Shown: one piece after another, positions 1 to 47,862 of the stretch | Numbering within the stretch: the stretch's first letter is position 1 | Layout of the letters: every line of letters begins with the position of its first letter | NCBI GenBank assembly: GCA_963731735.1 | Contig: CAVSWO010000002.1 | Span: forward strand, 564,257 to 628,256 | Length of the DNA stretch: 64,000 nt | Reading direction: 5' to 3' | Source: Candidatus Kerfeldbacteria bacterium | Lineage (GTDB): Bacteria; Patescibacteriota; Patescibacteriia; SBBC01; CAIJZX01 | Position numbers and translations under genes: made by a program | The notes under the pieces: model-generated | Databases searched by the model: none | What the model saw: only the letters and a program-made list of their open reading frames with translations | What the model was told of the DNA's origin: nothing

Positions 1-317
1 ACCAGACCCTGACCGCCGGTTCCAGTACGATTGCCGACGCCGCGGGCGGCACGATTGGGAACGGTGATGACGAGTATGGCGCTTCGACTGATAGCGGCGG
101 AACGGTGGATCTTGCCTCAACCAGTAACTCGTGTGCCACTGGAACTGGCCCAATGAATGCGACCGGACTTTCGACCACCTTTCAGTCGTTCGCTGCCTCA
201 ACTACCACGGCTTCGGCTGAAGCCACCAAGCTCTGTCTGGTTGCCTCGGCGCCTGGATCAAAAGATGCCGGCCAGTACCAGAGCACACTGACGGTCGTAA
301 CCACTGGAAAATTTTAA
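1..317 (+). CDS. C-terminal fragment of a secreted surface protein, paralog of the 384-1442 and 1446-2510 genes (5' end outside window)
   Basis: Frame 3 is open from position 3. Its C-terminus (...TGTGPMNATGLSTTFQSF...TKLCLVAS...TLTVVTTGKF) aligns with the C-termini of the two downstream paralogs. Confidence 0.6.
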   Translation, partial: QTLTAGSSTIADAAGGTIGNGDDEYGASTDSGGTVDLASTSNSCATGTGPMNATGLSTTFQSFAASTTTASAEATKLCLVASAPGSKDAGQYQSTLTVVTTGKF

Positions 318-383: not shown

Positions 384-1442
384 TTGAAACATATATTTAG
401 CGGGTCCCAACGTTTTCGACCAGCAAAACACGCCATCCCGGCCTTGACCGTGGTTGGGCTTTTAGCGCTAATCTTAGCGCCATTGACCACCATCGCGGCC
501 ACCTTAACAACCCCCCGCGACTATCTCAATCGGCAGAAAGCATCACTAACTTCAGGGGTGCAGCACGAGATTTTCTTTACTCCAGCCACCAATGTGTCCG
601 GTGGTGCGGGAACGAACGTCGTTACCCTGACCTTCCCGGACGGTGATAATTGGTGCGCGACTGCGGGGTCGGATCTGACCGTAACCGGCATTACCGATCC
701 AACCGGCGCGAGCGAATCAGCCACATCCTTACCCGGCACTCTTTCGGGCGCCTGCGCTCAAGCTGCCCAAGATACGCTAACCATTACGGGAGTCGACGAC
801 CTGACGGCCGCGACGAAGTATGGAGTGCAGGTGGCTGACGGCTCAACGGCTAAACTCGGTACCCCGGCGGCTGGAAATGACCTTAAAGTCACCATCACGA
901 CCAACAACGGTTCGAGTGACGTTGATTCGGGGACCTACGCCGTTTCGATTATTTCGGATGATCAAGTTGTTGTCAGTGCGGTGGTAGACGTTACGCTAAG
1001 CGTTTCACTTAACACCAACAGCATCAACCTGGGAACCCTGTCGACGTCGAATGTCAATCAGGGAGGTGTTACCAGTACTGTTTCAACCAGCGCGGCGGGC
1101 GGATATATCTCGCTAGCAAAATATGGCGCGACCCTGACTTCCGGTTCGGATACGATTCCGGATACGACCGGCGGCACCATTGTGGCCGGGACTTCTGAAT
1201 TTGGCGCCTCAAGCTCGGATTCCGGAAATACGATTGGTGTTTGGTCGCCAGCGGCCTGTAGTACGACCGCGACCACCTCGAACGCGACCGCACTCTCGAC
1301 TACCTTTAAGGCCTTTGCCTCAAATACCGTAGCGGTGACGAATGAAGCCACTACGCTTTGCTTCCTAGCCTCTACCAGTGCCACGCAAGCTCCGGGAACC
1401 TATACCAGCACGTCGACCCTCGTGACGACGGCTCGATTTTAA
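384..1442 (+). CDS. Secreted surface protein, paralog A (signal peptide; N-domain shared with the dockerin protein at 3556; Thr/Ser-rich beta C-domain ending ...STLVTTARF)
   Basis: 352-aa ORF with a TTG start and a hydrophobic signal peptide. It is ~60% identical by eye to the next gene, and the LTTPRDYLNRQKAS motif is shared. Confidence 0.7.
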   Translation: MKHIFSGSQRFRPAKHAIPALTVVGLLALILAPLTTIAATLTTPRDYLNRQKASLTSGVQHEIFFTPATNVSGGAGTNVVTLTFPDGDNWCATAGSDLTVTGITDPTGASESATSLPGTLSGACAQAAQDTLTITGVDDLTAATKYGVQVADGSTAKLGTPAAGNDLKVTITTNNGSSDVDSGTYAVSIISDDQVVVSAVVDVTLSVSLNTNSINLGTLSTSNVNQGGVTSTVSTSAAGGYISLAKYGATLTSGSDTIPDTTGGTIVAGTSEFGASSSDSGNTIGVWSPAACSTTATTSNATALSTTFKAFASNTVAVTNEATTLCFLASTSATQAPGTYTSTSTLVTTARF

Positions 1443-1445
1443 TTT

Positions 1446-2510
1446 TTGCAATTTATGAATCATCAAATAACGCCAAACGCCATGCGAAAGTTCGCCCCAC
1501 GTATCATCAGCGTCTTGGCCGTGCTCGGCATGCTCGCGGTCAACGCGCAAATTGCTTCTGCCGGAACGCTAACCACGCCTCGTGATTATTTGAATCGTCA
1601 AAAGGCTTCGCAGACAAGCGGCGTTCAGCACCAAGTTTTCTTTACGACTGCCAATGCGGTGAGCGGTGGAGCGGGGAATAACGTCGTTACGCTAACCTTT
1701 CCTGATGGCGATAACTGGTGTGCGACAGCCGGAACGGATTTAGCGACTTCTGGTATCACCGATCCAACCGGTGGGAGTGAATCGGCTACCTCGCTGCCTG
1801 GCACGCTTTCGGGCGAATGCACCCAGGGTGCCAATGATGCAATTATCATTACCGGGGTGGACGATTTGTCAGCGGCGACCGAATATGGTGTCCAGATTGG
1901 CGATGGGACAACCGGGAAACTCGGTACCTCAGCAGCCGCGAATGACATTAAGGTCACGATTACGACTAATGACGGTTCGAGTGACGTAGATTCCGCTACG
2001 TACGCACTCTCAATTATTTCCGATGACCAGGTGGTTGTCAGTGCGACCATTGATCCCACTCTGACGGTAGTTTTGAGCGCCAACACCGCCAACCTCGGCA
2101 CCCTCTCAACCAGCCAGGTCAACCAAGCCAGCATCACCAGCACCGTTGATACCAACGCGTCTGGCGGATATGTGTCGCTGGTAAAATATGATGCGACGCT
2201 GACCTCCGGATCGAATACTATTCCGGACGAATCCGGCGGCGGGACGATTGTGGCCGGAACCAGCGAGTACGGAGCTTCGACCGATAGCGGAGGAACCGTT
2301 GATTTAACCAGCACCTCGAACTCTTGCGCGACAGGTGCCGGACCGATGAACGCCGACCCGCTTTCAACCACCTTTCAGGTATTTGGCGAAGGGACAGCTG
2401 CGGTTTCAAGCGACGTTACAACGCTCTGTTTCGTCGCGACTACCAGTGCCACCCAAGCTCCGGGCACCTATACCAGTACGTCGACCCTGGTGACCACGGC
2501 TCGATTCTAA
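1446..2510 (+). CDS. Secreted surface protein, paralog B (tandem duplicate of 384-1442)
   Basis: 354 aa. It shares the signal peptide, the N-domain (LTTPRDYLNRQKASQTSGVQH...) and the identical C-terminal 20 aa (ATQAPGTYTSTSTLVTTARF) with paralog A. Confidence 0.75.
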   Translation: MQFMNHQITPNAMRKFAPRIISVLAVLGMLAVNAQIASAGTLTTPRDYLNRQKASQTSGVQHQVFFTTANAVSGGAGNNVVTLTFPDGDNWCATAGTDLATSGITDPTGGSESATSLPGTLSGECTQGANDAIIITGVDDLSAATEYGVQIGDGTTGKLGTSAAANDIKVTITTNDGSSDVDSATYALSIISDDQVVVSATIDPTLTVVLSANTANLGTLSTSQVNQASITSTVDTNASGGYVSLVKYDATLTSGSNTIPDESGGGTIVAGTSEYGASTDSGGTVDLTSTSNSCATGAGPMNADPLSTTFQVFGEGTAAVSSDVTTLCFVATTSATQAPGTYTSTSTLVTTARF

Positions 2511-2544
2511 AACGCCGCTCCATCGAGCGCTTATTCTACAGCCC

Positions 2545-3552
2545 ATGAACCGCCGACTCGTTTCCATCCTAGGACTTCCAGTCTTGCTGGCGGTCGGATT
2601 CTTGTGGCACTCCCATTCCGCGTCCGCCCTAACGCTCGTTCCGCCCAGTCTCGAGTTTTCAGCCCAGCCGGGTGAGACGATTGATACAAAAATTAAGCTA
2701 TTCAACGAGGAATCAGATGCGATTTCGGTGTTTAGTTCAACCTCGAATTTTACCGCCAAAGATGAATCTGGTGATCCGAACTTTGATTTTGCGGACACGC
2801 CGACGGACTTAGCCAGCTGGATCGACGTGGGGGTCGGTCCGTTTACGCTCCAGCCGGGCGATCGTCTGGAAATCCCATTTAGCATCAAAGTTCCGGCTGA
2901 TGCCGAACCGGGCGGTCACTACGCCAGCGTTTTCTTCGGCACTGATCCGTCAATCAAGCCGGAGGGTGGCGGCCAAGTCAATATCCGGTCGCTGATCGGC
3001 ACCTTGGTGATTCTCCGTGTAGCCGGCGATGTACGGGAGCAAGCCGCGGTAGCTTCATTTGGCCCAGCCACAAAAACCCTCAATCGCTTACCGAGCACAC
3101 TGGAACTGCGGATTCAAAATACGGGAAACGTCCATGTTCGACCGCAAGGCACGGTAGTCATCAAGAATTTGTTCGGCGGCGAGTCTGCTCGTATCCCCAT
3201 CAACGAAGTCAACGGGGCGGTTTTGCCGGCCAGCATTCGCAAGTTTGATATACAATGGGCTAAACATGATACCACCGGAACACGGGGTAATTTCTTCCAG
3301 GAGCTCGGTTCCGAATGGAGTAACTTTGCCCTCGGACCCTATACAGCTACTGCCAGTATCACCTACGGTCAATCGAATTTGACGTTAAGCTCGAGCACCA
3401 AGTTCACGGTTATTCCATGGCGGTTGCTCACGGTCATCGTGGTGGTCCTCGGGTTGCTGCTTTGGCTGCTGATCTTCGGTATTCGACGTTATAATTCGGC
3501 CATTATTCACCGCGCGCAAAGTCATTTACCCCCGCCGGGAACCGGCAAGTAG
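2545..3552 (+). CDS. Cell-surface protein with N-terminal signal peptide, beta-rich ectodomain and C-terminal TM anchor plus basic tail (CscA/DUF916-DUF3324-like architecture; family assignment tentative)
   Basis: 335 aa. Signal peptide is LLAVGFLWHSHSASA and the C-terminal TM is LLTVIVVVLGLLLWLLIFGIRRY. The size and topology match anchor proteins found in WxL-type surface clusters. Confidence 0.6.
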   Translation: MNRRLVSILGLPVLLAVGFLWHSHSASALTLVPPSLEFSAQPGETIDTKIKLFNEESDAISVFSSTSNFTAKDESGDPNFDFADTPTDLASWIDVGVGPFTLQPGDRLEIPFSIKVPADAEPGGHYASVFFGTDPSIKPEGGGQVNIRSLIGTLVILRVAGDVREQAAVASFGPATKTLNRLPSTLELRIQNTGNVHVRPQGTVVIKNLFGGESARIPINEVNGAVLPASIRKFDIQWAKHDTTGTRGNFFQELGSEWSNFALGPYTATASITYGQSNLTLSSSTKFTVIPWRLLTVIVVVLGLLLWLLIFGIRRYNSAIIHRAQSHLPPPGTGK

Positions 3553-3555
3553 AAT

Positions 3556-4890
3556 ATGCGCCGGGTGGTGGGGTGGCGCGAGTATGTCCTGGTTACTCTG
3601 ATCGGGCTGTTTGTCTTGTTCAGCGGTTCGCGGTCGGTCCAGGCCGGCGCCTTGACGGGGATGCGAGATTATTTACTGCGTCAACAAGCCAGCTTAACCA
3701 GCGGACAAACCCACCAAGTATTTTTTATCCCGGCTACTTCATTGCCTGGCAGCGGCAACACGCTGGAGCTGGCATTCCCGATCGGGCAAAGTAGTCGCTG
3801 GTGCCGAACGGCTGGATCAGATGCAACCGTTACCGGGATCACGGACCCAATCGGTGCGACCGAGGGCGCCACGGCGTTACCCGGAACGCTAACGGCCAGC
3901 TGTTCACAGGGGGACAACAGCACGACCGGTGATCAACTTGTGGTCAGCGGCGTGGGCCCACTAGTCAGCGGCACGCGGTACGGAGTTTCAATCGCTGACG
4001 GTTCGACCACGAAACTTGGCACGCCACCGGCAGCCAATAATATTCTTGTGAATGTCAAAACCACCAATGGTATCTCTGATGTCGATGCCGGTATTTTTTG
4101 GTTGGCTACAGTCAGCAATGACCATGTCGTTATTTCTGCCACGGTCTCATCAGCACCCGAACCAACCACCAACCCGGTCGTCCAGTTTATCGGACGGGCA
4201 TCGCCGGGAACCGATGTACATATTCATCGCGACACAATTACGGATCCTCCGCTCCAATCTGTTCCGACCGACCCGGCTGCCAAATTCAATGTTACGTTAA
4301 CCGATCAGCCGACCGGTCAGCATACGTATACGATCGAAGCCAATGATACTGATGGGCGGCCGCACACCGCTTTGGTCTTCGCCCTGAATCTTTCGGCTGG
4401 TTCGACGACAGTCATTAGCGGCGTCTTCTTGGGTCCGACGATTGCGGTTGATAAAACGACCGCCACGCTTGGCGAGAATGTAACGGTCTTCGGGAAGACC
4501 GCACCGAGCAGCACCGTGACGGTGACTGTCAGTTCGGATCCGGTTTCCTACAATCTGACGGCGGACGCCAACGGCGATTGGTCAAAAAGCGTGAAAACCA
4601 CCGATATCGGCACCGGTTCCCACGAAGCGGTGGCGAGGGCGGTATCGACGGATAATTCCGTCTCGGAGAACAGTCCAACCGCCACCTTCGCGGTCAATCC
4701 GCTGGATCAATGTGACGGAAAGCAGACGGCAGACATTAACTGCGATGGGGACGTCAATTTAACTGATTTCAGTATTATGCTGTATTTCTGGAAAACCGAT
4801 AATCCGGCCAACGCTCGGGCCGATATCAATGGCGACGGCACCGTCTCGATCGTGGACTTTAGTATCATGCTCTACCAATGGACCGGATAA
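3556..4890 (+). CDS. Secreted protein with paralog-family N-domain and a C-terminal type I dockerin-like duplicated Ca-binding repeat
   Basis: The N-terminus (ALTGMRDYLLRQQASLTSGQTHQVFF...) is homologous to paralogs A/B. The C-terminus has DINCDGDVNLTDFSIMLYFW ... DINGDGTVSIVDFSIMLYQW, two dockerin F-hand repeats. Confidence 0.7.
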   Translation: MRRVVGWREYVLVTLIGLFVLFSGSRSVQAGALTGMRDYLLRQQASLTSGQTHQVFFIPATSLPGSGNTLELAFPIGQSSRWCRTAGSDATVTGITDPIGATEGATALPGTLTASCSQGDNSTTGDQLVVSGVGPLVSGTRYGVSIADGSTTKLGTPPAANNILVNVKTTNGISDVDAGIFWLATVSNDHVVISATVSSAPEPTTNPVVQFIGRASPGTDVHIHRDTITDPPLQSVPTDPAAKFNVTLTDQPTGQHTYTIEANDTDGRPHTALVFALNLSAGSTTVISGVFLGPTIAVDKTTATLGENVTVFGKTAPSSTVTVTVSSDPVSYNLTADANGDWSKSVKTTDIGTGSHEAVARAVSTDNSVSENSPTATFAVNPLDQCDGKQTADINCDGDVNLTDFSIMLYFWKTDNPANARADINGDGTVSIVDFSIMLYQWTG

Positions 4891-6017
4891 AATATTTTCT
4901 GATTCTCGGATTAACCGGCTTGGGACTGTTTGGACCAAGCAGCGCGGCGGCCCAAACACCGCAGCCATCGATTCATTTAGTGACCTCCCAGGGCTTGGTG
5001 CAAACCGGTGATATCCTGACCGCCGAGATCCAACTCAATAGCGGTGGCCAGAACGTCAACGCGGTTGAAGTGGTGCTGCAATATGCGCCGCAACAACTGC
5101 AAGTGGTATCGGTTACGCGTCAGCAATCGGTCCTCACGCTATGGCCGGAAGTGCCGCGGTGGGATGCGCAACTCGGCGAGGTGCATATGACCGGTGGCCG
5201 CCCGGGCGGATTCTATGCCGTCAACGCTAGCCTGGCGACCGTTTACTTCCGGGCACTTACAAGCGGGCCCGTTCAGCTGGGATTTGATCTTGACCAGACG
5301 GCGGCCTACTTGCATGATGGAAAAGGCACCCGCCTGCCGCTCGAGTCGAGCGAGACAGAAATTCAGGTTGGCAGCAACCTCCAACCACGTCTCGAGTTAA
5401 TCTCGACGACGCATCCAACGCCGGAATATTGGTCGCATGGAACCAGCGTGCACGTCGGCTGGGTCGTTGAACCGGACACGGAATATTCATACGAGTTTTC
5501 AACCGATCCATCGGTACTGCCGGATGCAACGCCAGAAAAAAAAGTTGGTTCAGTTGAATATACCGGGCTGACTGATGGCGTCTACTTTTTTACTATCAAG
5601 CAGCGGGCAATAGGACAACCCTGGTCGGCCCTGATCCAGCGACGCTTTTTGATTGATGGGACGCCGCCAGCATCCTTCACGATTCAACGCGTCTCATCCG
5701 GCTTGGCTAACCGAGCCACTTGGCTGATTTGGAACACCACGGATCAAACCTCGGGATTGGTTGGATATCGCCTGGCGGTCGATGGCCGGGATGTTGGGGC
5801 GGTCTCCAGTCCGTTGAATTTTGACGATGCCTGGCGCGGTCACCGATTGACCATTACCGCCACCGACGCGGCCGGGAATATCCGCACGGCGACCTGGCAA
5901 AAATCCGAAGCTGGCGGGTATCATCCGCTCGTACAATGGTGGATTATTCTGATCTTGGGTGTCGGGGCGCTGGTCGTGGCTGTTTGGGTAACGCGACGAT
6001 TGATTGCATCGCGATGA
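4878..6017 (+). CDS. Membrane-anchored cohesin-like domain protein 1 (signal peptide, cohesin-like beta-sandwich, Fn3/Ig-like domain, C-terminal TM)
   Basis: The cohesin-like stretch (PSIHLVTSQGLVQTGDILTAEIQLNSGGQNVNAVEVVLQYAPQQLQVVSV) is followed by the pattern ...G..F......G...F.V. The C-terminal TM is WWIILILGVGALVVAVWV. It is paralogous to the next two genes. Confidence 0.65.
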   Translation: MDRIKYFLILGLTGLGLFGPSSAAAQTPQPSIHLVTSQGLVQTGDILTAEIQLNSGGQNVNAVEVVLQYAPQQLQVVSVTRQQSVLTLWPEVPRWDAQLGEVHMTGGRPGGFYAVNASLATVYFRALTSGPVQLGFDLDQTAAYLHDGKGTRLPLESSETEIQVGSNLQPRLELISTTHPTPEYWSHGTSVHVGWVVEPDTEYSYEFSTDPSVLPDATPEKKVGSVEYTGLTDGVYFFTIKQRAIGQPWSALIQRRFLIDGTPPASFTIQRVSSGLANRATWLIWNTTDQTSGLVGYRLAVDGRDVGAVSSPLNFDDAWRGHRLTITATDAAGNIRTATWQKSEAGGYHPLVQWWIILILGVGALVVAVWVTRRLIASR

Positions 6018-6043
6018 GCAATAATTCCTGATATACTCACCAT

Positions 6044-7477
6044 ATGCTGAATCGGATGATACATAAGCGTCGAGTACTGACAGGGTTGACGAACGTCCTG
6101 GCTGGTGCCGGATTGTTTTTGATACTCGTGCCTGGTGCAACTGCCCAAGCGACAGGTGCCAGCCTCAGCGTTTCGCCCAACTCCGGTGTCTTTGAAGTCG
6201 GCAGTTTAGTCGACGTTTCGTTCTTAGTTGATACCGGTGGCCAAGCGGTGAATGCCGTCAACGCTGAAGTTCAGTTCCCGGCCGACAAACTCCAAGTCGT
6301 AAACCCGGCCGCCAGCACCTCGTTCATCACGATTTGGGTCACCGCGCCGACCTATTCGAACAGCGACGGGACGATGCAATTTCAAGGTGGGTTACCGAAT
6401 CCGGGAATTAAGACGAGCGCGGGCGTAATCAGCACCGTCACTTTCCGCGTCACCGCGGCCGGCAAAGCCGTGATTAAATTTGCTCCCTCTTCCCAAGTGC
6501 TACGCAATGATGGTGAAGGAACGAATATATTGTCGGCCACTGGCAGCGCCGAACTCAGTCTCAAAATTCCCCCGCCGGCCGGACCAATTGTCACCAGCAC
6601 GTCGCATCCCGACAGTAATCAATGGTCGAACAATCCGAATGTGCAGCTGACCTGGGAAGCGCCCGAGGATGCGGTCGGGTATAGCTATAGTTTCGACCAA
6701 AATCCAAAATCCGTTCCCGATGAAACCATTGAGACCACCAAAACGAACGCGGACGTAAAAGCCGCAACGGATGGCGTCTGGTACTTTCATTTACGCGCCA
6801 AGAATGAAAGTTGGGGTGGCACAACGACCTATGCCGTTCGAATTGATACCACGCCGCCGGCCGCATTCACTCCTACCCTCGATCCGAATTTGATTACGGT
6901 CGAGCAAACCGCATTGCTGCGATTTCTGACCACTGACGCAGCCTCCGGCATCGATCACTATGAAGTCAAACAAATCGATGTTTCGGGCACCGGCCAGGGA
7001 GATACCTTGTTTATTGAATCGATCAGTCCGTATACGATTCAACGCCTGTCCGACGGGAGTTACCAATTTGTGGTTCGGGCATTTGATCGGGCTGGGAACG
7101 TGACCGAAGGGACAACCACCCTGACCGTGGTGGCGGCCGGACTACCCTTTTTTGCTCGAGTTCCGTTTCTAAGAAATCCGGCGGTCGCGAATATCGCGTT
7201 AGTAGTGCTGGCCAGTTTAGTACTCCTTTTTATTGGCTGGCTGATCATTCGTCGGGCCCGGCTGCGGAGTACATTCCGGCACGACTTGTCCAAGCTCGAG
7301 CATGATGCGCAAAAGAAAGCTGCCGATCTGCAGCAGGAGATGCAAGAAATCCAAGAAGCGGAAAACATGTTCCATCAGCAAGTCCCGCCCCTAGCCCCGC
7401 CACCGCCGCCTAGCGTGCCTCCGCCACCGCCCCAGCCGCCACCAGCCACCCCGCCCAATCAGCCATCCCGCCAATGA
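6044..7477 (+). CDS. Membrane-anchored cohesin-like domain protein 2 (cohesin-like, Fn3/Ig-like, TM, coiled-coil/Pro-rich cytoplasmic tail)
   Basis: The cohesin-like region is SLSVSPNSGVFEVGSLVDVSFLVDTGGQAVNAVNAEVQFPADKLQVVN...ISTVTFRVTAAGKAVIKF. The TM is ALVVLASLVLLFIGWLII and the tail is PPLAPPPPPSVPPPPPQPPP. Confidence 0.7.
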   Translation: MLNRMIHKRRVLTGLTNVLAGAGLFLILVPGATAQATGASLSVSPNSGVFEVGSLVDVSFLVDTGGQAVNAVNAEVQFPADKLQVVNPAASTSFITIWVTAPTYSNSDGTMQFQGGLPNPGIKTSAGVISTVTFRVTAAGKAVIKFAPSSQVLRNDGEGTNILSATGSAELSLKIPPPAGPIVTSTSHPDSNQWSNNPNVQLTWEAPEDAVGYSYSFDQNPKSVPDETIETTKTNADVKAATDGVWYFHLRAKNESWGGTTTYAVRIDTTPPAAFTPTLDPNLITVEQTALLRFLTTDAASGIDHYEVKQIDVSGTGQGDTLFIESISPYTIQRLSDGSYQFVVRAFDRAGNVTEGTTTLTVVAAGLPFFARVPFLRNPAVANIALVVLASLVLLFIGWLIIRRARLRSTFRHDLSKLEHDAQKKAADLQQEMQEIQEAENMFHQQVPPLAPPPPPSVPPPPPQPPPATPPNQPSRQ

Positions 7478-9126
7478 TCCGCCGCCTGGTTACCATCATC
7501 GGAGTCGGTTTCTTGGCTTGGGCCGTGCCGACGGTATCGCGGGCCGCGACCCTGTACTTATCACCTTCGTCGGGTACCTACTCGACTGGGCAAACGTTTT
7601 CAGCCAGTGTGCGCGTCAATACCGGCGGTCAGGCCATCAATGCGGCGGAAGGCACCCTGGCTTTTCCAACCGACTTGTTGGAAGTTACGAGCCTGAGCAA
7701 GAGCGGATCGGTCTTTTCCCTGTGGCCGAGCGACCCCAGTGCTTCAAACAGCACGGGGAAGATTAGTTATTCCGGCGGGGTGCCCAGTCCTGGATATACT
7801 GGCAGCAGCGGGAAAATATTTACCATTACTTTCAAGGTGAAAAGCACCGGTACGGCGGCGATTGCCGCTAGCAGCGGAAAAATATTGGCCAATGACGGCC
7901 AGGGCACAAATATTTTGACCGGCCAATCAGGCGGCACCTTTACCCTCAGCCAAACCGCCGCTCCCGCTCCGGCCGCGCCAGCCGAACCAGCAAAAACGAC
8001 CCCGACGTTGAGTTCCAGCACGCATCCAAATCAGGATGCCTGGTATCGTGATCTGCAAGCTAGCCTAACCTTTAGTCAGCCGACGGGCTTACTGGGCGTG
8101 AGCTTTGGACTGACCGATCAGCCGGATTCAGTCCCGGATGAAGTACCTGATCCGACGGACGGAACAATTCAAACCACCATACCGAATGAAGGCGTCTGGT
8201 ATTTTCATATTCGTGGCTGGTATAGCAATGGTTGGAGTTCAACCGCGCACTATCGATTCCAGATAGACCGGAGTGCGCCAGATCCATTTTCGATAACCTT
8301 GGATCGGGATCGTGACGTCAAAGACGCGACGCCCACCCTCAAGTTTATGGCCACGGATGCATTGAGTGGGATTGATCATTATACCTTGCGTTTGAATGGC
8401 GACGACCCTGAGCAAGTCGAAAGCCCGGTCACTTTAGCCCTAACCAACGGCGGTCCTCAGACGGTGGTCATCACAGCCTACGATCGGGCCGGTAACACAA
8501 AAACCAGTCAGCTAGATTTTGATTTTGACGGGTACCCGCCGCCGATCATTACCGGCATCAGTCAAAAGCTTATTCTGCTGCAACCCATTACGGTCGACGG
8601 AACAGCCGCCAGCGGTGATACGGTTACCATTTATCTGGATGGGGAGGTCCTCGGCACCGTCCAAGCCGGTCGGCTGACCGATCAGGGGGCAGTTGTGGTT
8701 CGGGTGCCGTGGCATTTTCAAAGCCAACGCTTGCTGGTGCCAGGCAAATACAGTTTGACGGCTACCGCCACCAGCGCCGACGGGATGGTCAGCGTCCCAA
8801 CCGATCCGAAAATTGTTCACGTGTCCGGCACCAGCCTGATTTTTAACGGCTATACCCTGGCCACCATCGCGATCGCTCCCGCCCTGGCCGGGCTGCTGAT
8901 TGTTCTGTTGGTAGCCAATAGCTTGGTCTACGTGCAACTGTTTCGGGCGGTTAAGCAAATGCACAGCCGAGAGTTACAAGCCGACCGAGATGTTCGTGCC
9001 TTAGCCCAACGGTTGGAGTCTCAACGGTTATCTCCCAGCGCCATCAAGAAAAGCCTCCAAGACATTGAACGCGACCTTGAGGAGCCGGCCAAGCCGGTCA
9101 AGAAACCTCGTCGCCGTAAATCATAA
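7474..9126 (+). CDS. Membrane-anchored cohesin-like domain protein 3 (cohesin-like, Fn3/Ig-like domains, TM, basic cytoplasmic tail)
   Basis: The cohesin-like region is ATLYLSPSSGTYSTGQTFSASVRVNTGGQAINAAEGTLAFPTDLLEVTS...IFTITFKVKSTGTAAI. The TM is LAGLLIVLLVANSLVYV and the tail ends KKPRRRKS. Confidence 0.7.
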   Translation: MIRRLVTIIGVGFLAWAVPTVSRAATLYLSPSSGTYSTGQTFSASVRVNTGGQAINAAEGTLAFPTDLLEVTSLSKSGSVFSLWPSDPSASNSTGKISYSGGVPSPGYTGSSGKIFTITFKVKSTGTAAIAASSGKILANDGQGTNILTGQSGGTFTLSQTAAPAPAAPAEPAKTTPTLSSSTHPNQDAWYRDLQASLTFSQPTGLLGVSFGLTDQPDSVPDEVPDPTDGTIQTTIPNEGVWYFHIRGWYSNGWSSTAHYRFQIDRSAPDPFSITLDRDRDVKDATPTLKFMATDALSGIDHYTLRLNGDDPEQVESPVTLALTNGGPQTVVITAYDRAGNTKTSQLDFDFDGYPPPIITGISQKLILLQPITVDGTAASGDTVTIYLDGEVLGTVQAGRLTDQGAVVVRVPWHFQSQRLLVPGKYSLTATATSADGMVSVPTDPKIVHVSGTSLIFNGYTLATIAIAPALAGLLIVLLVANSLVYVQLFRAVKQMHSRELQADRDVRALAQRLESQRLSPSAIKKSLQDIERDLEEPAKPVKKPRRRKS

Positions 9127-9827
9127 TGCCGGACGCGACGGATTGGATAGTAATTCCAACCTTTAATGAACGGGCGAATGTCGGACCGTTGTTGACCGCG
9201 ATTCGTCGGGTGTATACTGGCCAGATTTTATTTGTGGATGACAGTTCACCGGATGGAACGGGCCTAGCGGTTCAGCAACTAGCCGCACATGATCCCGGTA
9301 TCCATTTGTTGACTCGGCCGCGCAAACAGGGATTAGCGGCCGCCTATCGCGAAGGATTGACGCGGGCATTGCAGCAGGGCGCCCAGCGGATTCTCCACAT
9401 GGACGCCGATCGATCACATGACCCGCGAGCAATTCCCGAATTATTGTCCGAGCTCAGTCGCGCCGATGTGGTGGTTGGTTCACGCTACGTCGCCGGCGGG
9501 ACGCTCGATATTCCGTTCCACCGACGCGTCATCAGCGCCATTGGGAATCAATATATTCAGTTACTCCTGGGCCGCAACGTTCATGATTGGAGCTCCGGGT
9601 GTTGTGCCTGGCGAGCCCCAATGCTGGCCCGGGCGCTCACTGCCGCCACCACCACGGTCGGCTATGCTTGGCTGATTGAAATGAAATGGCGAGCCAAACA
9701 AGCCGGTGCGCGAATGGCGGAAGTCCCACTGCGCTTTACGGATCGGACCGAAGGGGAGTCAAAATTTTCGTGGCAAATCATGGCCGAAGATTTACGTACG
9801 GCCTGGCGTTTACACCGGGGGCGCTAG
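9126..9827 (+). CDS. GT2-family glycosyltransferase (polyprenol-phosphate mannose/glucose synthase, Dpm1/GtrB-like)
   Basis: Motifs IVIPTFNERANV, FVDDSSPDGT and HMDADRSHDP (DxD) are present, in a 233-aa ORF. Confidence 0.7.
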   Translation: MPDATDWIVIPTFNERANVGPLLTAIRRVYTGQILFVDDSSPDGTGLAVQQLAAHDPGIHLLTRPRKQGLAAAYREGLTRALQQGAQRILHMDADRSHDPRAIPELLSELSRADVVVGSRYVAGGTLDIPFHRRVISAIGNQYIQLLLGRNVHDWSSGCCAWRAPMLARALTAATTTVGYAWLIEMKWRAKQAGARMAEVPLRFTDRTEGESKFSWQIMAEDLRTAWRLHRGR

Positions 9828-9902: not shown

Positions 9903-9979
9903 GGCCACTTAGCTCAGTTGGTTAGAGCGCACCGTTCACATCGGTGAGGTCGCTGGTCCGAATCCAGCAGTGGCCACCA
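9903..9979 (+). tRNA. tRNA-Val (anticodon CAC)
   Basis: Manual fold: acceptor GGCCACT/AGTGGCC, D-arm GCTC..GAGC, anticodon stem CACCG/CGGTG with loop TTCACAT, T-arm GCTGG-TCCGAAT-CCAGC, encoded CCA. Confidence 0.8.
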
Positions 9980-9994
9980 GATCAATCTATTTTC

Positions 9995-10708
9995 ATGCCC
10001 CCAGCCTCTTCATCAAAGAAAAACTCCGGCGCTGCCAGTAATCCAATTGGTGACCCCAAGTCCTTTCGCGGCTACAGCACCAATTTCCAGAAGATGGCCA
10101 AACCCGAAAAGAAATCGGATTTTTTACCGAAGTTCAAGAATTCATTCGGAGGCTTTGTAATCGAAGTCGCCAAGATTGTAATCATCGCACTGATCATCAT
10201 CCGACCGGTGCACGCCTTCCTGATCCAGCCGTTTTACGTCAAAGGCGCTTCGATGGAACCGAATTTTCATGATCAAGACTACTTGATCGTCGATCAATTA
10301 TCCTATCGGTTGCATGACCCGCGCCGTGGTGATGTGGTGGTGATTCACAATCCGTTCCAGGCAAATGAATTTTTCATCAAACGGATCATCGGCCTGCCGA
10401 ATGAGACAGTTCGGATTGCCGACAATACAGTGACCATTACCAATACCGAACATCCCAACGGGTTTGTCCTGGATGAGACGCCGTATCTCGAACCGAATGT
10501 CCAAACACCCGGGAATATCGAAGTTGCACTCAGCGCTGATGAGTACTACGTGATGGGCGATAATCGAACCGCCAGCCTAGATTCTCGCAGCTTTGGACCC
10601 ATTACCCGCGAATCGATAGTTGGCCGAACGGCGCTCCGGGCCTGGCCAATCTATCAAGCTCGAACGTTCCAGACGCCGAACTATACTCCAGCCACTAGTA
10701 CCCCGTAA
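9995..10708 (+). CDS. lepB: Signal peptidase I (S26 family)
   Basis: GASMEPN (Ser box), RGDVVVI and KRIIGLPNE boxes, with an N-terminal TM. The track ORF start lies inside the tRNA, so I trimmed to the first ATG after it (9995); 10093 is an alternative. Confidence 0.7.
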   Translation: MPPASSSKKNSGAASNPIGDPKSFRGYSTNFQKMAKPEKKSDFLPKFKNSFGGFVIEVAKIVIIALIIIRPVHAFLIQPFYVKGASMEPNFHDQDYLIVDQLSYRLHDPRRGDVVVIHNPFQANEFFIKRIIGLPNETVRIADNTVTITNTEHPNGFVLDETPYLEPNVQTPGNIEVALSADEYYVMGDNRTASLDSRSFGPITRESIVGRTALRAWPIYQARTFQTPNYTPATSTP

Positions 10709-13336: not shown

Positions 13337-16300
13337 ATGATCCGCGGATTCCGCCAATCCCGTCTACGCTACCTTTTGCCCGCCGTTTTCATCGGTGGTG
13401 CTTGCGCCTGGGCGCTGGTAGCTTGGCATCCAGTGCAAGCCCAAACGGCCAGCACCTTTAGCATCGAATCTGTCGGACAGCAGGTCGGACTTGGCAATGC
13501 CGATTTGCGCCAAGTGGCCATCAATATCATTCGCTGGTTGCTTGGATTTGTGACCCTGATTGCAGTCGCCTACCTGGTGTATGGCGGCTATCTGTGGATG
13601 ACCGCGGCCGGGAATGAACAGCGGGTTGAAAAAGCTAAACAGGTGATTTTGCAGGCGGTGATCGGCCTGGTAATTATTATCCTCGCCTGGGCAATTGTCT
13701 TGTTCGTGGCGCGGACGGTGGCGGAAACTACCAATACCAATAATACCAACGGCGGAGGCGGCGGAGGCTGTATTGGGTTCGAGTGTTTGTCTACGCCAAA
13801 AACCTTTGACCTGACGGGTGTCACGACCTGTTCGGCCCGACCGGATTATGCAAAAAATGTTCCGCGAGCCAGCGCCGTGTCTTTGACCTTCAACCATGAC
13901 ATTGATATTGCAACCGTCCAAGCTGCCGTTACCGATGCGGTGGCCGCGAACCCAAACCTCGTGATTGAAAAGTGTGATGCTGGCGATTGCGCGAATCGAA
14001 CAACCCTCGTCAAACCGCTCCAAAACCAAGTCTATTCGGGCACGACCCCGAAAGGTGCGGCTGGCACGCCGTTATCCGAGTGGGTTACCCATGACAATAC
14101 GGTGACGTTCTACCATACGTCATTTTCAACTGATGAAAACAATTCGGACAACTTGTACTTTGAACCGAATACTACCTACCAACTGACGGTCCCTGCCAAA
14201 GACGCTCCAACCGCCCTCAAAGATACCACCAGTCCCGGGCGAAGTCTGCAAAAGTGTCAGGCCAATTCGGCTAGACAACCGATTGAAGGTGACGGTTTCC
14301 TGGGTGAAAATTGCCGCGAAGTTGGCGATACGATTGTTTGGACTTTCACGACCGGCAGCGACATTGACGGACCGGAACTTACACCTCGCAGTACCACCCC
14401 AACCTCCGGTTACTTGACCGGTAACGGGGTTCCAGACCGGAACGTCAGTCGAACTGGTATTATCGGCATCGATTTCAACAATGCCATCGATCCGGCCTCT
14501 ATCACGACCGACAATTTTATCGTAACCAAGTATACAACCGCCCCAGACGCGACAAACGGAACCGGAGGAACGCTTGATGCGACGGCGCTCCCGGCTAGCG
14601 ACTTTGTGATTCGAGTCAACGGTAGCGGAACTGGCGGCTGGTTACAACTCAAAGCCGGCAATCTATTTGACCCGTTTACCTGGTATCAGGTGCGGGTCAA
14701 AGACGTTCGGAATTTATGTGGTACGGCCCAAAATCCAAATCCGTATGAATGGGTATTTGAAACGAACGATACGGTACCGGGGGTCAAACTAGTCTATCCA
14801 AAAAACGACGCCAAAAACATTTGTCCATCAACCGAGGTCTTTATCAAGTTCTCGACCTCGATGTGGCGAATCGATAGTGGCAGCACTACCTGCCAACCTG
14901 CTTCGGGCGGGAGCTACGTGACGAACGGCACACTGGCACCCAATCCGGGCCGTGGGTTCGTGGTGGAAGACGAACTTGACCCCAACAACCCGAATAACTC
15001 TTGCACGAAATACGCCTTCACACCAACCGAGACTTTACTGACTCCGGACAAACCTCATACCGCTTCGGTTACGACCAGCTTGGTGATTAATCAAGACGGT
15101 AACACGTTAAATCGAAACTGGACTTTCACAACCAGCAAAGCTGACCAGTGTATCCAAGAACCGTATATTGATCGAGTTGAAGCGAACACGGGTACTAACG
15201 GCCAATGTGTCTCGGTGATTGGGAACTACTTTGAAAAACAGCCACCGGGTGGCACACGCGAAACCGATGGCCAAGGATCCGATAAACTTTTCCTCTCGAC
15301 CGTTGACCAAAAGAATGCCAAGTCTTGGAAACAAAATGTGATTGTCAGTACGGTTAATGATGGGACGCCAGATTCGCCGGCTTTAGTGCCCGGACCTCAG
15401 CCATATAAAGTGGTACTCGATTACGGGGGAACAATTGGTCAGCTTGAAAGTAATACGGTCGATTTCAATTTACAAGCTGGTGGCGGTACACTGGGTGTCT
15501 GCTTGGTTGGTGTCACCCCAGATCAAGGTCCAGCCGGTACCAATACCACCCTGAGCGGTGAAGGCTTTGGTGGATTTGGTGCAAACAGCGCCGTAACGTT
15601 TTCGGGTGGACCGAACTGGGGAGTGGCGGCCGGAAACTGGAGTGATGGACGAATTAGTCCAGCCCAGGTGCCAACTACTACCCCTGATGGATCAGGATTG
15701 GTACGTGTACAGACGAATGGTGGTGCACTTTCGAATCCAGTTCCCTTTACCGTCACCGTACCGAATACGGGTGGGGGAGGTGGCGATACGGTTCCCCGAG
15801 TTGAAGAATCGGCGCAGTGTAATATTGCTCAAAACGAGATCCCAAGTCCGAACCCGAAGCGCAATGATAACCAAGCCTGTCTCAATACACAGGTCAGCGC
15901 CCGGTTTACACTCGATATGGATCAGAATTCTTTGAATAGCACCAATATTTTCTTACAAAAATGTGATCCGGTTTGTACGACCGCGGTGGCCAGCAGTGTG
16001 GTCGCAACTGGATTGCGTGGATTTACGCTCACACCAGACGCGAACCTTGAACCGTCAACTCGCTATCAAGTTACGGTCACCACCGGAGTGCAGAGTAATG
16101 CCAGCCCGGCGGTTCCGATGGCTGGGCCGTATACTTGGCAATTCACCACCAAGGCTGATGGAGCAAATTGTGCCCCGGCCGGTGTGACGGTTTCATCGAA
16201 CTCAGCTTTTGGGAATGCGATTCAAAGTTCAGCCACTCGCTATACCTACAGTGACCCAGTTCCTTACGGCGTCAATCTAACTGCCAATGTGGTTGATGCC

Positions 16301-19009
16301 GAGTGCCGTACTCTGATCCCAGGTTCGCTCAGTTTTGCCTGGGGGACGACGGATCAAAGTGTCGCTACCCTGACCCCAAACGATGCGCAAACTATCTTAG
16401 CGCATAGCCCAGCCACACCGGTTGCTGGTTCAAGTAACGTCAATGTCAAGGTTGACCAACTGACTTCGGCGAACGTCCAAATTAATTACGATCCGGTTTC
16501 CTGTCAAACAGACAGCGACTGTGCTTCCAATACATATGGTGCGTGCAGTGGCTCGACCTGTGAAAATAATCGTTGTACGCCGGTCGTGACGGAGCTGACG
16601 CCAACGACGGCGCCGATTGGTGACCTGATGACCATCAAAGGTTGCTGGTTTGGCGACTATGATGACACCATCAGCCAGGTAACCTTCCTCGGACAATCGG
16701 GAACGACCGATGATCAATCCGGAATAATCCCAGACTCGGCAATCTGCGGTCCGGCTTCGAACACCTGGACCAATGAAAGAATAGTTCGGGAAATTCCGAA
16801 CCGCACCACCCCGGATCCAAGCGATGATGCTGTGACGGGACCGGTTGAAGTCACACGCTTTGATAACAAACTTGCCCAAAGTCCGTCGGACTATGTGCCA
16901 ACCAATGACAATTTATCGCCAGGGATTTGCGCGGTCAATCCATCGTCAGGTCTGACGGGAACCGCGGTAACGGTCAAGGGTTTCCGTTTCGGGGCTGACG
17001 AAAGCAATAAGCGGCCAACGAACGACCAAGTCAATATCACCCGCATTGGTGGAAACACCGCGGTTATGTCGGTCTATGGTAACTGGTCAGATACCAGCAT
17101 CGGGACACAGATCCCTCCGTCAGCGGCAGTTGGTGCAAGCAATGTGAAGGTCAAGAATGACGACGTTGACTCTTCTAATGATTGGCCATTTACCGTGACC
17201 GATACGGGCGCGACCACCTGTGCGCAGTATTGTAGTAACGATAACCAATGTGGTGCTGGCCAGGGATGTGGAACAGATTTCTGCTGCAGCGCTCGGCCGA
17301 AAGTCACCGGAACCTCGCCGTCAGCCAATGCCACCAATGTCTGCCGTAACAGTCAACTTGATCTGACGTTTGACCAGCCGCTAGCCGTGCAATCGGGCGC
17401 AGTCGTTTACAGCGATGGGGGAACACCGGTTTCAGGTTCGACCCATCTCCAAAATAGTTCAACCACCGGCACCCTGAGCTATCAACCGGGTTTGTTACAG
17501 CCAGACTCTTCGCAACTCATCACGCTCAATCCGAATGCGATTCGCAGCTTGAAGGGCGTCACGGCCAGCAATACGTTTCCGACCGATTGTACCCTGGTGG
17601 CTCGGCCTCGGACACAGCCGAATCAAATATTGTGTTACCAAACCGGAAAAGATATTTGTCAGATTGATCAAATTCGGGTCCGGACTGAGGATGGATTGAA
17701 TACCCACCGCTTCACCAGTGTCGATGAAGTCATGCAGTATCGGGCCGAAGCCCTTTCGAATCGTGATGGCGGAACCGTAATCGTGCCGGTGCCGGGCACC
17801 TACGCCTGGACGTGGTCGTGGCAAAGCGCAAACTCGACGATCGCCACCGTCGGCTTGACCAGCGGCGCTAGCGCCAATCCGAGTACGAGTGACGTTACGG
17901 CCAAGAGTAACGGACGGACCTTAGCTCAGGCTACCGCTACAATTACCGAAGACACCCAAGGGAATTCTACCGGGACGCAAAAAAACGGTTCGGGCGAAGC
18001 GATTGTGGATGTGTGTGATAACCCCTGGAGTTTTACTGACGCGAATGATAATTGTGATTCGGGAGGGACTTGCAACGACTTTCACTTCACGCTGAGTTAC
18101 TGCCAAGGACAAGATTCTGCCGACCTCCTGCCATATTTCTCTTATACTGGTTCGAATGCCCAATTGGGAGCGATTGAAGGACAAAATTCGGCCGATACAT
18201 CGCGACTGAAGAGCATCTTCTTCAAAGAAACCGCCAGTAGTAAAGACGTGATTGGCATGCTCATATTCGACAACCCCGACCTATTATCTCCGTATGATTG
18301 GTTCAAGCAGCGCTTCCCGCTCGATACCGGCGGTTCGAGTTCAATCATTGCCGGCTATCCGGCCTTCCGAACTGGTACGACCACCTACATTGGGATTACC
18401 GATTTGTCGGGTGGAACGCTCACCGGCCGGATGGTTGTCTTGGATTACAACTCGAATAACGCCTCGACCGAGACCCAAAATATTTATAATCAAATCGTGA
18501 CCAAGGCCGAATTCAATACCAATGTCACGGACATTACCGAGAAACAACAAATCTTGAACGACACCAAGCGGGTGCAGGACCTGGCTTCCCTGAAAACCAA
18601 ACTCGCCGCCTACAAGACGGCTCACGGCAGTTATCCAAGCTTGCAAGCCGGTACCTACATCATCGGACTGAGTGCTTCAACCTGGCCGTCCTGGCAGCAA
18701 ACGCTTGGCAACGAACTTGGGCAATCAGCCCCAACTGATCCGACCAATACGTTTGCGCCGGATTGCAAACAAAATGTTGGCGGGAGTTATGAGAATCAAA
18801 CCTGTTGGTCCGAGTCGCTCAAACAATTCCAATGCCCGGCCGACTCCTATGTCTATCTCTATCGATCCAGCGGAGATAGTTACACCCTGTCCGCGCGGAT
18901 GGAGTACCAGGGAACCGGGAATTTCCAACAAAACGCCGGCTTGTCGGACAGTTGCAGCGGCGTTGCCGGGGCCCAGTGTTCCTGCTTTAATTACCGGGTA
19001 ACACCTTAA
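13337..19009 (+). CDS. Giant (1890 aa) Cys-rich surface protein. N-terminal signal peptide plus VirB2/TrbC-like pilin TM hairpin; long extracellular Ig/IPT-like repeats; C-terminal type IV pilin/GspG-like globular domain
   Basis: N-terminus: signal peptide (..HPVQAQ), TM1 LLGFVTLIAVAYLVYGGYLWM, short loop, TM2 VIGLVIIILAWAIVLFVA, then NTNNTNGGGGGG. C-terminus: LAAYKTAHGSYPSL...DPTN...YVYLYRSSGDSYTLSARMEY resembles the GspG/pilin head. Confidence 0.8.
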   Translation: MIRGFRQSRLRYLLPAVFIGGACAWALVAWHPVQAQTASTFSIESVGQQVGLGNADLRQVAINIIRWLLGFVTLIAVAYLVYGGYLWMTAAGNEQRVEKAKQVILQAVIGLVIIILAWAIVLFVARTVAETTNTNNTNGGGGGGCIGFECLSTPKTFDLTGVTTCSARPDYAKNVPRASAVSLTFNHDIDIATVQAAVTDAVAANPNLVIEKCDAGDCANRTTLVKPLQNQVYSGTTPKGAAGTPLSEWVTHDNTVTFYHTSFSTDENNSDNLYFEPNTTYQLTVPAKDAPTALKDTTSPGRSLQKCQANSARQPIEGDGFLGENCREVGDTIVWTFTTGSDIDGPELTPRSTTPTSGYLTGNGVPDRNVSRTGIIGIDFNNAIDPASITTDNFIVTKYTTAPDATNGTGGTLDATALPASDFVIRVNGSGTGGWLQLKAGNLFDPFTWYQVRVKDVRNLCGTAQNPNPYEWVFETNDTVPGVKLVYPKNDAKNICPSTEVFIKFSTSMWRIDSGSTTCQPASGGSYVTNGTLAPNPGRGFVVEDELDPNNPNNSCTKYAFTPTETLLTPDKPHTASVTTSLVINQDGNTLNRNWTFTTSKADQCIQEPYIDRVEANTGTNGQCVSVIGNYFEKQPPGGTRETDGQGSDKLFLSTVDQKNAKSWKQNVIVSTVNDGTPDSPALVPGPQPYKVVLDYGGTIGQLESNTVDFNLQAGGGTLGVCLVGVTPDQGPAGTNTTLSGEGFGGFGANSAVTFSGGPNWGVAAGNWSDGRISPAQVPTTTPDGSGLVRVQTNGGALSNPVPFTVTVPNTGGGGGDTVPRVEESAQCNIAQNEIPSPNPKRNDNQACLNTQVSARFTLDMDQNSLNSTNIFLQKCDPVCTTAVASSVVATGLRGFTLTPDANLEPSTRYQVTVTTGVQSNASPAVPMAGPYTWQFTTKADGANCAPAGVTVSSNSAFGNAIQSSATRYTYSDPVPYGVNLTANVVDAECRTLIPGSLSFAWGTTDQSVATLTPNDAQTILAHSPATPVAGSSNVNVKVDQLTSANVQINYDPVSCQTDSDCASNTYGACSGSTCENNRCTPVVTELTPTTAPIGDLMTIKGCWFGDYDDTISQVTFLGQSGTTDDQSGIIPDSAICGPASNTWTNERIVREIPNRTTPDPSDDAVTGPVEVTRFDNKLAQSPSDYVPTNDNLSPGICAVNPSSGLTGTAVTVKGFRFGADESNKRPTNDQVNITRIGGNTAVMSVYGNWSDTSIGTQIPPSAAVGASNVKVKNDDVDSSNDWPFTVTDTGATTCAQYCSNDNQCGAGQGCGTDFCCSARPKVTGTSPSANATNVCRNSQLDLTFDQPLAVQSGAVVYSDGGTPVSGSTHLQNSSTTGTLSYQPGLLQPDSSQLITLNPNAIRSLKGVTASNTFPTDCTLVARPRTQPNQILCYQTGKDICQIDQIRVRTEDGLNTHRFTSVDEVMQYRAEALSNRDGGTVIVPVPGTYAWTWSWQSANSTIATVGLTSGASANPSTSDVTAKSNGRTLAQATATITEDTQGNSTGTQKNGSGEAIVDVCDNPWSFTDANDNCDSGGTCNDFHFTLSYCQGQDSADLLPYFSYTGSNAQLGAIEGQNSADTSRLKSIFFKETASSKDVIGMLIFDNPDLLSPYDWFKQRFPLDTGGSSSIIAGYPAFRTGTTTYIGITDLSGGTLTGRMVVLDYNSNNASTETQNIYNQIVTKAEFNTNVTDITEKQQILNDTKRVQDLASLKTKLAAYKTAHGSYPSLQAGTYIIGLSASTWPSWQQTLGNELGQSAPTDPTNTFAPDCKQNVGGSYENQTCWSESLKQFQCPADSYVYLYRSSGDSYTLSARMEYQGTGNFQQNAGLSDSCSGVAGAQCSCFNYRVTP

Positions 19010-29734: not shown

Positions 29735-30070
29735 ATGATTGACCCGACCTATAAGAAAATTATTATCCGGGGACTGTGGTACGCCCTGGTAACTATTATA
29801 GTCTACCTCATTGTAGGGAATGTCTGGTTTAAAGATGATCCGTGGGGGGCCTTTGTAGTTGGCCCCTTTCTTCAGTTTGGCGTCGCCATAGCGGTGGTGC
29901 TTGCTGGCGAACTTTGGTGGAACAGAAAAAAATCTCAAGGTAGCATGCCTCAATCGAACGGTGGTACGTACAAGAAGGCCGGCTCTGCGTACTGGCTTCG
30001 AATATGGATTATTATCATTGGCTTGATAGCTCTCTATATCGGATTTTTCTTTCTGATGCCGTATTTATAA
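29735..30070 (+). CDS. Small membrane protein (hypothetical)
   Basis: 111 aa, 3 TM helices, low GC. Confidence 0.5.
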   Translation: MIDPTYKKIIIRGLWYALVTIIVYLIVGNVWFKDDPWGAFVVGPFLQFGVAIAVVLAGELWWNRKKSQGSMPQSNGGTYKKAGSAYWLRIWIIIIGLIALYIGFFFLMPYL

Positions 30071-30090
30071 TATACAAGGATTATTTACTC

Positions 30091-46253: not shown

Positions 46254-46266
46254 TAGGAGGTTCCCT

Positions 46267-47848: not shown

Positions 47849-47862
47849 CTCGACTCGTCCAT

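Follow-up and report, generated by a model that had tools for sequence, protein, structure and literature searches.

A large part of bacterial diversity belongs to the candidate phyla radiation (CPR), whose members are attached to host cells, and how they construct surface fibers and hold on to them is almost unknown. What would such an organism do with a dockerin and with cohesins anchored in its membrane? The question is raised by a 64-kb stretch of DNA (64,000 nt; contig CAVSWO010000002.1), called the window below, in which all coordinates count from position 1 and which comes from an organism whose closest named relatives are Candidatus Kerfeldbacteria. Four consecutive open reading frames (ORFs), starting at 3556, 4878, 6044 and 7474 exactly where a first-pass annotation of the sequence had placed them, encode one dockerin-bearing protein and three cohesin-like proteins with a transmembrane (TM) helix. 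That annotation had seen in the four genes a self-contained docking system of a CPR-like bacterium. The organism was judged correctly, but the system is not self-contained, as its four genes form the end of a tight operon headed by Pam-type pilins and a chaperone. The explanation that we favor, and hold to be probable with some reserve for the chain as a whole, is that the locus encodes, at the end of the pilus operon, the anchor of a Pam-type pilus built by donor-strand exchange, and that this terminator/anchor is split in two parts joined by dockerin and cohesin.

The gene at 3556..4890 (+ strand, as are all genes of the operon) ends in the repeats DINCDGDVNLTDFSIMLYFW and DINGDGTVSIVDFSIMLYQW. 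These were the only two matches to the dockerin-loop motif in the six-frame translation of the window, and by this search the whole 64 kb holds one dockerin. The module (4708..4887) consists of two tandem F-hand loops, DINCDGDVNLTD and DINGDGTVSIVD (4732-4767 and 4822-4857), with Ca2+ ligands at positions 1, 3, 5 and 12 and a presumed helix after each loop. Scanned alone it scored 36.0 bits against Pfam Dockerin_1 (PF00404), and the whole protein scored 31.8 bits, the gathering score being 22.9; all 38 of the 38 aligned relatives matched the same family. Residues D393, D404, D423 and D434 are invariant across the dockerin-protein family, and N395, D397, N425 and D427 are conserved in at least 90% of its members. 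The family profile reached the solved type I dockerins 4fl4_A (E = 4e-5), 2y3n_B and 1daq. As far as its sequence tells, the module is a genuine type I dockerin, and the F-hand pair recognized at first sight stands.

The three proteins encoded downstream share one architecture, with an N-terminal single cohesin, two or three immunoglobulin (Ig)/FnIII-like domains, one TM helix and a cytoplasmic tail. Protein 1 (4878..6017) has its cohesin at 4953-5399, its TM segment at 5928-5984 and a tail of 8 residues. In protein 2 (6044..7477) the cohesin lies at 6146-6595 and the TM segment at 7193-7249, followed by a long helical and Pro-rich cytoplasmic tail, and in protein 3 (7474..9126) the cohesin (7534-7980) is followed by three more beta domains, a TM segment at 8857-8913 and a long, helical, basic tail. 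When the domains were scanned alone, coh1 and coh3 scored 26.7 and 33.6 bits against Pfam Cohesin (PF00963), over the gathering score of 24.1, with coh2 just below it; among relatives, 67 of 88 cohesin domains matched Pfam Cohesin and no other family. The predicted structure of the cohesin protein contains the nine-stranded jelly-roll beta-sandwich of solved cohesins, and Foldseek matched the model to the cohesin-FnIII tandem of C. perfringens GH84C (2w1n). The three proteins had been described as membrane-anchored, cohesin-like paralogs with cytoplasmic tails, and all parts of this description agreed with our data, the comparison of proteins 2 and 3 giving a BLAST E-value of 1e-61. In relatives, genes of the coh1 type were seen only immediately after the dockerin gene, and wherever three cohesin genes were present the third was of the coh3 type. 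The three paralogs are old.

The genes upstream point to what these modules might hold. Pam pili were first described in 2026, for Saccharimonadia/Microgenomatia-type operons only, in a preprint reporting cryo-electron microscopy structures of the pili of the CPR bacterium Candidatus Mycosynbacter amalyticus (Troman et al. 2026, bioRxiv 10.64898/2026.03.03.709456). In the pilins described there, one linker strand connects the N-domain with an Ig-like C-domain, which is open and receives the linker strand of a neighbor. The Pam chaperones are PapD-like proteins with a TM helix at the C-terminus; the tip subunit PamT is acceptor-only, and PamR, for which a terminator role is proposed, combines a strand at its N-terminus with two FnIII domains and a TM helix. 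Cohesin, dockerin and WxL are not mentioned in the preprint. In the window, the product of 384..1442 is a probable Pam-type pilin (pilin 1) with a signal peptide, an N-domain, a linker/donor strand (..DDQVVVSAVVD..) and a strand-accepting C-domain, which matched the NCBIfam model CPR_Pam_pilin_C (NF058581) at E = 3e-12 and 46.8 bits (cut-off 55) over model positions 2-148 of 148. Pilin 2 (1446..2510) is a paralog of pilin 1 (~68% identity). In the pilin family as a whole, CPR_Pam_pilin_C was matched by 79 of 88 members (best E = 8e-30) and the PamT model by 54 of 88. A PDB sequence search with the pilin C-domain profile gave no match, and did not reach the PamA/PamB entries 25PZ and 25QA cited in the preprint. 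A further fragment with a Pam-pilin C-domain, the C-terminus of a protein truncated at the left edge of the window, lies at 3..317; it covers positions 49-150 of 150 of the hidden Markov model (HMM) that we built for the pilin C-domain, is 49% identical to residues 250-352 of pilin 1, and is either a third pilin or a giant tip protein. From 384 to 9827 the genes are separated by at most 34 nt or overlap at start/stop codons, the start of cohesin-TM gene 1 overlapping the dockerin gene by 13 nt. A promoter/terminator scan gave nothing over background except one promoter-like site at 326-354.

The dockerin protein is related to these pilins. From the signal peptide through the N-domain (residues 31-187, 3646..4116; ~50% identity, E = 3e-54) to where the linker strand begins, it aligned with pilins 1 and 2; beyond this point the homology ended. 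The strand reads DDQVVVSA(V/T)(V/I)D in the pilins, and its equivalent in the 3556 protein is NDHVVISATVSS (residues 188-199, 4117..4152), in which at least 90% of the family members keep A195 and V197. Past the strand, the place of the pilin C-domain is taken by two Ig-like spacer domains (4171..4707; weak Pfam matches, Big_6 / Big_13-like) and the dockerin. Big_6 was matched by 31 of 38 relatives, and a profile search matched the spacers to the Ig domains of Bap (7dm0). Two forms were seen among 93 homologs of the dockerin protein, the long one of the window and a commoner one of ~285 aa, where a strand of the type xVxV[ST]AxV (for example ETVSITATVVDE, DVTVTATVVDE and QVTVTATVPE...) comes straight after the signal peptide and leads into a Pro-rich linker, the Ig-Ig pair and the dockerin. 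The pilins of some lineages are short as well (signal peptide, strand and C-domain, ~210 aa), and these lineages carry the same strand at the N-terminus of the dockerin protein. We derived a 12-residue matrix from the strand before the C-domain in 64 pilins (consensus DDQVNVTATVDP), taking the 99th percentile of shuffled sequences (9.4) as the threshold. The strand of the window protein scored 11.1, and 44 of 83 dockerin proteins exceeded the threshold, which the N-termini of cohesin proteins and chaperones rarely did. Judged by this alignment, the 3556 protein is a pilin derivative that has lost its acceptor domain. The displayed cargo had been pictured as free proteins; with the dockerin carried by a pilin derivative, the cargo would instead be a pilus.

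Between pilin 2 and the dockerin gene, 2545..3552 encodes a membrane-anchored, chaperone-like protein with a signal peptide, two beta-sandwich domains, a TM segment at residues 295-313 and a short cytoplasmic tail. Its AlphaFold2 model (pLDDT 92.9, pTM 0.82) shows the two beta-sandwich domains and a helix at 292-326. The best Foldseek match was the WxLIP of E. faecium (9i1y/9i25, E = 1e-11), and the next were the chaperone-usher chaperones CfaA, CsuC and Caf1M, with TM-scores on the target of 0.47-0.56. The protein has the fold of a PapD-like chaperone and a C-terminal TM helix, as in PamC/PamD, and is encoded beside the pilins. The WxLIP resemblance also appeared in sequence, Pfam WxLIP_PGBD giving weak matches in 36 of 70 chaperone relatives (best 1.6e-5) and none in the window protein. 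According to Hassan et al. (2023, PMC10599100), Firmicute WxL clusters include a small protein consisting of the WxL domain alone, a large protein in which this domain is C-terminal, and WxLIP (DUF916-DUF3324-TM), whose two Ig domains come with a TM helix and which inserts a strand into the WxL domain. This trio mirrors the pilin, the giant protein with a C-domain (see below) and the chaperone of the present system. WxL proteins, however, are regarded as peptidoglycan-bound and not as polymerizing, cohesin or dockerin is not known in their clusters, and the domain with two Trp-x-Leu motifs was not recognized in the window pilins, for which Pfam WxL gave no match at E <= 1.

Relatives of the locus supply a candidate for a subunit with an acceptor and no strand, which would stand at the other end of the fiber. 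Many loci begin with a very large gene, whose products are 3,526, 3,581 and 5,059 aa long where they were called. The last ~150 residues of these giants are a pilin C-domain (48% identical to a window pilin, E = 5e-30) with no strand before it: in the 60 residues preceding the C-domain of 16 giant proteins, no segment exceeded the threshold of the strand matrix (maximum 5.5 vs 9.4). The giant genes lie directly upstream of the pilins in L002 (1-7836), L005 (1-7769), L008 (1-4095), L019, L026, L030, L036, L038-L041, L046, L078 and L080. These proteins are probable tip adhesins.

These parts suggest a mechanism. The pilins encoded at 384 and 1446 would be exported by Sec and kept foldable by the membrane-tethered, PapD/WxLIP-like chaperone encoded at 2545. 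They would then polymerize, the linker strand of each subunit filling the open C-domain of the subunit ahead. The fiber would start at the tip with a subunit that has the accepting C-domain alone, in relatives the protein of 3,500 to 5,000 aa, and by analogy with chaperone-usher pili and the model of the preprint it would grow at its cell-proximal end, where the membrane-bound chaperone may cap the last groove. Since an acceptor-only subunit could only start a fiber and subunits with both strand and groove extend it, the strand-only 3556 protein should come last, at the proximal end; having a strand and no groove, it could only end the fiber, and would be added once and halt growth. Nor could the chaperone hold it, as there is no groove to be held by, and anchoring would fall to dockerin and cohesin instead. 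The dockerin, held out on the two Ig spacers, would bind with Ca2+ to the cohesin at the membrane-distal end of at least one of the proteins encoded at 4878, 6044 and 7474, and this docking would fix the finished pilus to the membrane.

To see how far the arrangement is kept, we scanned genomes at the species level (one genome per species) and found at least 573 with a relative of the dockerin protein. Eighty loci were fetched, and HMMs made from the domains of the window were applied to their ORFs. Many public record titles of plainly CPR-type contigs (L009, L011, L014, L015, L017 and others) read 'uncultured Gammaproteobacteria bacterium' or 'uncultured Candidatus Saccharibacteria' and were unusable for taxonomy. 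A cohesin-TM gene followed directly after the dockerin gene in all 77 assessable loci, each from a different species. The chaperone gene was present upstream of the dockerin gene in 70 of 79 loci and a pilin C-domain gene in 44 of 56, and the gene order of the module was kept in unrelated flanks (L007, L008). For a sample independent of the dockerin, metagenomes were scanned with the pilin C-domain alone, which gave 36 loci with pilin, chaperone and at least 2.5 kb downstream. Thirty-three of these contained a dockerin gene with one or more cohesin genes, two had a one-piece form, and none had both.

Two of the three exceptions, L135 (2401-3324) and L118 (2910-4286), are informative. The gene after the chaperone encodes a signal peptide, a strand (SSIIVSAIVNAS and SSITMSAIVTST, respectively) and an Ig-Ig pair (E = 1e-33 and 3e-36 against the HMM), followed by a hydrophobic TM segment instead of the dockerin, and no cohesin genes come after it; the next genes are gyrB in L135 and guaB with purA in L118. 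The L118 ORF runs on into a NUDIX-like cytoplasmic part, which may be a real fusion or a read-through by the ORF caller. Dockerin plus cohesin-TM protein is therefore interchangeable with a direct TM anchor, and the one-piece strand-Ig-TM form is the architecture of PamR, the anchor proposed for M. amalyticus. The constant adjacency of the two genes (77 of 77) and their joint loss in L118 and L135 lend indirect support to the predicted binding of dockerin to cohesin. The window system resembles the Pam pilus in the domain plan of its pilins, its TM-anchored PapD-like chaperone, an acceptor-only tip as indicated by relatives, a proposed strand-inserting base terminator fixed to the membrane, Sec signal peptides on all parts and the lack of an usher. 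It differs in that terminator and anchor are separate polypeptides, which dockerin and cohesin would hold together: the strand belongs to the 3556 protein, which lacks a TM helix, and the helix to the cohesin proteins, whereas PamR has both on one chain. Other differences are the tip, which in relatives is a giant protein of 3,500-5,000 aa fused to the C-domain and not a small PamT, and the lineage, which belongs to the Kerfeldbacteria/Parcubacteria group and not to Saccharimonadia/Microgenomatia.

Several observations weigh against the split-anchor pilus. The window pilins scored 43-47 bits, under the NCBIfam curated cut-off of 55, and the 2545 chaperone matched no NCBIfam model. The giant tip gene of this genome, if there is one, lies to the left of window position 1, with only the C-domain fragment at 3-317 visible. 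The strand matrix found no significant motif in 39 of 83 dockerin proteins. Strands of pilins and dockerin proteins were only weakly more similar within their own locus than between loci (13.7 vs 11.9, permutation p ~0.02), a weak covariation that follows from how little the strand motif varies. The polarity of the fiber rests on the chaperone-usher analogy and on the AlphaFold models of the preprint, not on experiment. The coh2 domain, at 23.4 bits (E = 7e-5), fell 0.7 bits short of the gathering score. A PDB sequence search with the cohesin-family profile matched Ig-repeat adhesins and no solved cohesin.

A more specific difficulty is that the proposal does not account for the retention of three ancient paralogs with differing stalks and tails. 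In another explanation, the cohesin-TM proteins would be an assembly platform, an inner-membrane analogue of an usher, that recruits the dockerin subunit to start, gate or time polymerization or signals through its tails. The conserved order of the three and their very different cytoplasmic tails, those of coh2 and coh3 being long helices, would suit such a role, and our scans found no Pfam or NCBIfam usher-like match in the operon. However, L135 and L118 keep the pilin and chaperone genes with a plain TM helix, so that cohesin proteins are dispensable for assembly there, and the Pam operon of M. amalyticus was described without them (Troman et al. 2026). We regard a platform as unlikely.

A second difficulty comes from a minority class of dockerin proteins, of 433-446 aa, which have a different N-domain (motifs like YSSTNFTVEDPV...SSSSxxGLGQS) and FnIII. 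Their loci (L048 9407-10708, L057 9380-10699, L081 9371-10711, L085 8525-9826 and L058 3552-4859) have cohesin genes downstream and a giant gene upstream, and no recognized pilin or chaperone upstream, meaning that the cohesin-dockerin pair is not exclusively tied to pilins. In L131 (2420-3559) the N-domain of this class is fused to a pilin C-domain. That the pair can serve other cargo, together with the fact that its modules are genuine, would fit a stand-alone system for display or cell-cell attachment, with a free cargo or adhesin on three scaffolds and no tie to the upstream genes. We give this little credence for the window. At this locus half of the cargo protein is pilin, it has the donor strand of a pilin and is encoded in one tight operon with pilins and a chaperone, and the association recurs both in the loci found through the dockerin protein and in those sampled through the pilin. 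The first-pass annotation was right that this is not a cellulosome, which we rejected in the absence of enzymes and of a multi-cohesin scaffoldin: neither glycoside hydrolase nor carbohydrate-binding module (CBM) families were found among the 30 further window ORFs scanned, each cohesin protein has one cohesin, and the window has one dockerin.

The modules might also bind other things, for instance glycans of the host or of the cell itself, or the wall, and not each other. The cohesin family is a divergent branch, as its profile meets no solved cohesin by sequence, and a Cell 2023 paper speculated that SEML1_0315, an essential dockerin protein of Southlakia, targets glycans; we nevertheless find this very improbable. 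Least probable of all is binding in trans, with the dockerin subunit at an exposed fiber end or on shed fibers engaging cohesins of sister cells to bridge cells or recapture pili: Pam pili of M. amalyticus detach easily (Troman et al. 2026) and a dockerin of two near-identical repeats might in principle bind cohesins either way round, but the other fiber end is held by acceptor-only giants, which would put the dockerin end last, beside the membrane-bound chaperone, and in the TM-swap variants that end is anchored in the membrane of the producing cell.

The split-anchor pilus can also be set against better-known systems. Set beside the type I cohesin-dockerin pairs of C. thermocellum (CipA-Xyn10B, 1ohz) and C. 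cellulolyticum (2vn5) and the non-cellulosomal cohesins of C. perfringens GH84C (Coh-FnIII, 2w1n) and A. fulgidus (2xdh), the present locus has no enzymes, no CBM and no multi-cohesin scaffoldin. Its cohesins come one to a protein, and a C-terminal TM helix in each of these proteins does the anchoring that SLH domains or sortase would do elsewhere; the dockerin is carried by a pilin derivative, and its binding is a prediction. We found no report of Pam pili and a non-cellulosomal cohesin-dockerin pair in combination, although each is known separately.

Chaperone-usher pili (Pap/Fim, Csu, CFA/I, Caf1) follow a donor-strand logic, in which the tip adhesin combines a receptor part with an acceptor-only pilin domain and the PapH terminator ends growth. 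The window system shares with them the fold of the chaperone (Foldseek) and, in the proposed mechanism, the donor-strand logic, an acceptor-only tip (seen in relatives) and a dedicated last subunit. To our knowledge CPR bacteria lack an outer membrane, and the system differs from chaperone-usher pili in having no usher, no outer membrane and a chaperone tethered to the membrane; the donor strand, moreover, is an internal linker or N-terminal strand, and the putative terminator is grooveless and would be anchored by a dockerin.

The final gene of the cluster (9126..9827, + strand) encodes a GT2 polyprenyl-phosphate-sugar-synthase-like glycosyltransferase. Its presence after the cohesin genes had been noted correctly, but its inclusion in the system does not hold: it is found in L003 and L005, is missing from L002, L007 and L008, and was rejected as a core part in favor of a variable neighbor. 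The signal peptidase I gene, which starts at 9995 by the L001 gene call, was rejected as well; it lies beyond a tRNA gene (9903-9976) that separates it from the GT2 gene, and it is not beside the module in L007 and L008. The GT2 protein resembles PpgS, AglJ and dolichyl-P hexose transferase, which are polyprenyl-phosphate sugar synthases, and a YfhO-like GT-C C-terminus is encoded at 47767-49938, 38 kb away. Speculatively, surface proteins might be glycosylated by the two on the outer side of the membrane. A modification on Ser356 was described for PamA of M. amalyticus (Troman et al. 2026).

Elsewhere in the window, 13337-19009 encodes a protein of 1890 aa that has Big_5 repeats and begins with a T4SS_pilin domain (PF18895); an orthologue of ~2000 aa occupies the same place, after HisRS-HIT-S21-YqeY, in L002, L003 and L005. 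Right after it, 19014-19514 encodes a small protein that consists of little else than bacterial thrombospondin type 3 repeats, which bind Ca2+. The class I aminoacyl-tRNA synthetase at 57450-60905 (tRNA-synt_1, Anticodon_1, DUF5915) has a His_Phos_1 domain inserted at residues 490-669. A second tRNA gene was found at 47771-47845 and a tmRNA gene at 52326-52714(-). The mechanically called ORFs 9944-10708 and 47767-49938 overrun the two tRNAs, and their true starts must therefore be later. No Pfam match at E <= 1e-5 was obtained for the ORFs 19524-20672, 30004-31074, 32374-33138, 38162-39235, 39238-40560, 44769-46253, 46219-47652, 51148-52347(-) and 56640-57359.

A wider version of the proposal, which we offer tentatively and which taken jointly is rather doubtful, would make cohesin-dockerin the standard plug and socket fixing giant-adhesin-tipped donor-strand pili in a large part of the Patescibacteria, to a membrane with no usher and no outer membrane around it. 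Pam, WxL and chaperone-usher systems would be branches of one superfamily of strand-complemented fibers assembled with the help of chaperones, and the cohesin paralogs would give distinct stalk lengths and cytoplasmic connections in a link that resists force and is releasable through Ca2+. The resemblance of the chaperone to WxLIP suggests that enterococcal, listerial and lactobacillar WxL clusters may use the same strand complementation. The locus extends the Pam system to Kerfeldbacteria and Parcubacteria-group lineages, covering hundreds of species, and identifies the giant C-domain proteins as probable tip adhesins. It also provides a concrete, testable account of how the base of such a fiber might be fixed, through a donor-strand-only subunit plugged by its dockerin into cohesins in the membrane. 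If true, this would be a new biological role for a pair of modules known from cellulosomes and toxin complexes, and would account for the presence of dockerin proteins, one of them essential, in organisms without cellulases.

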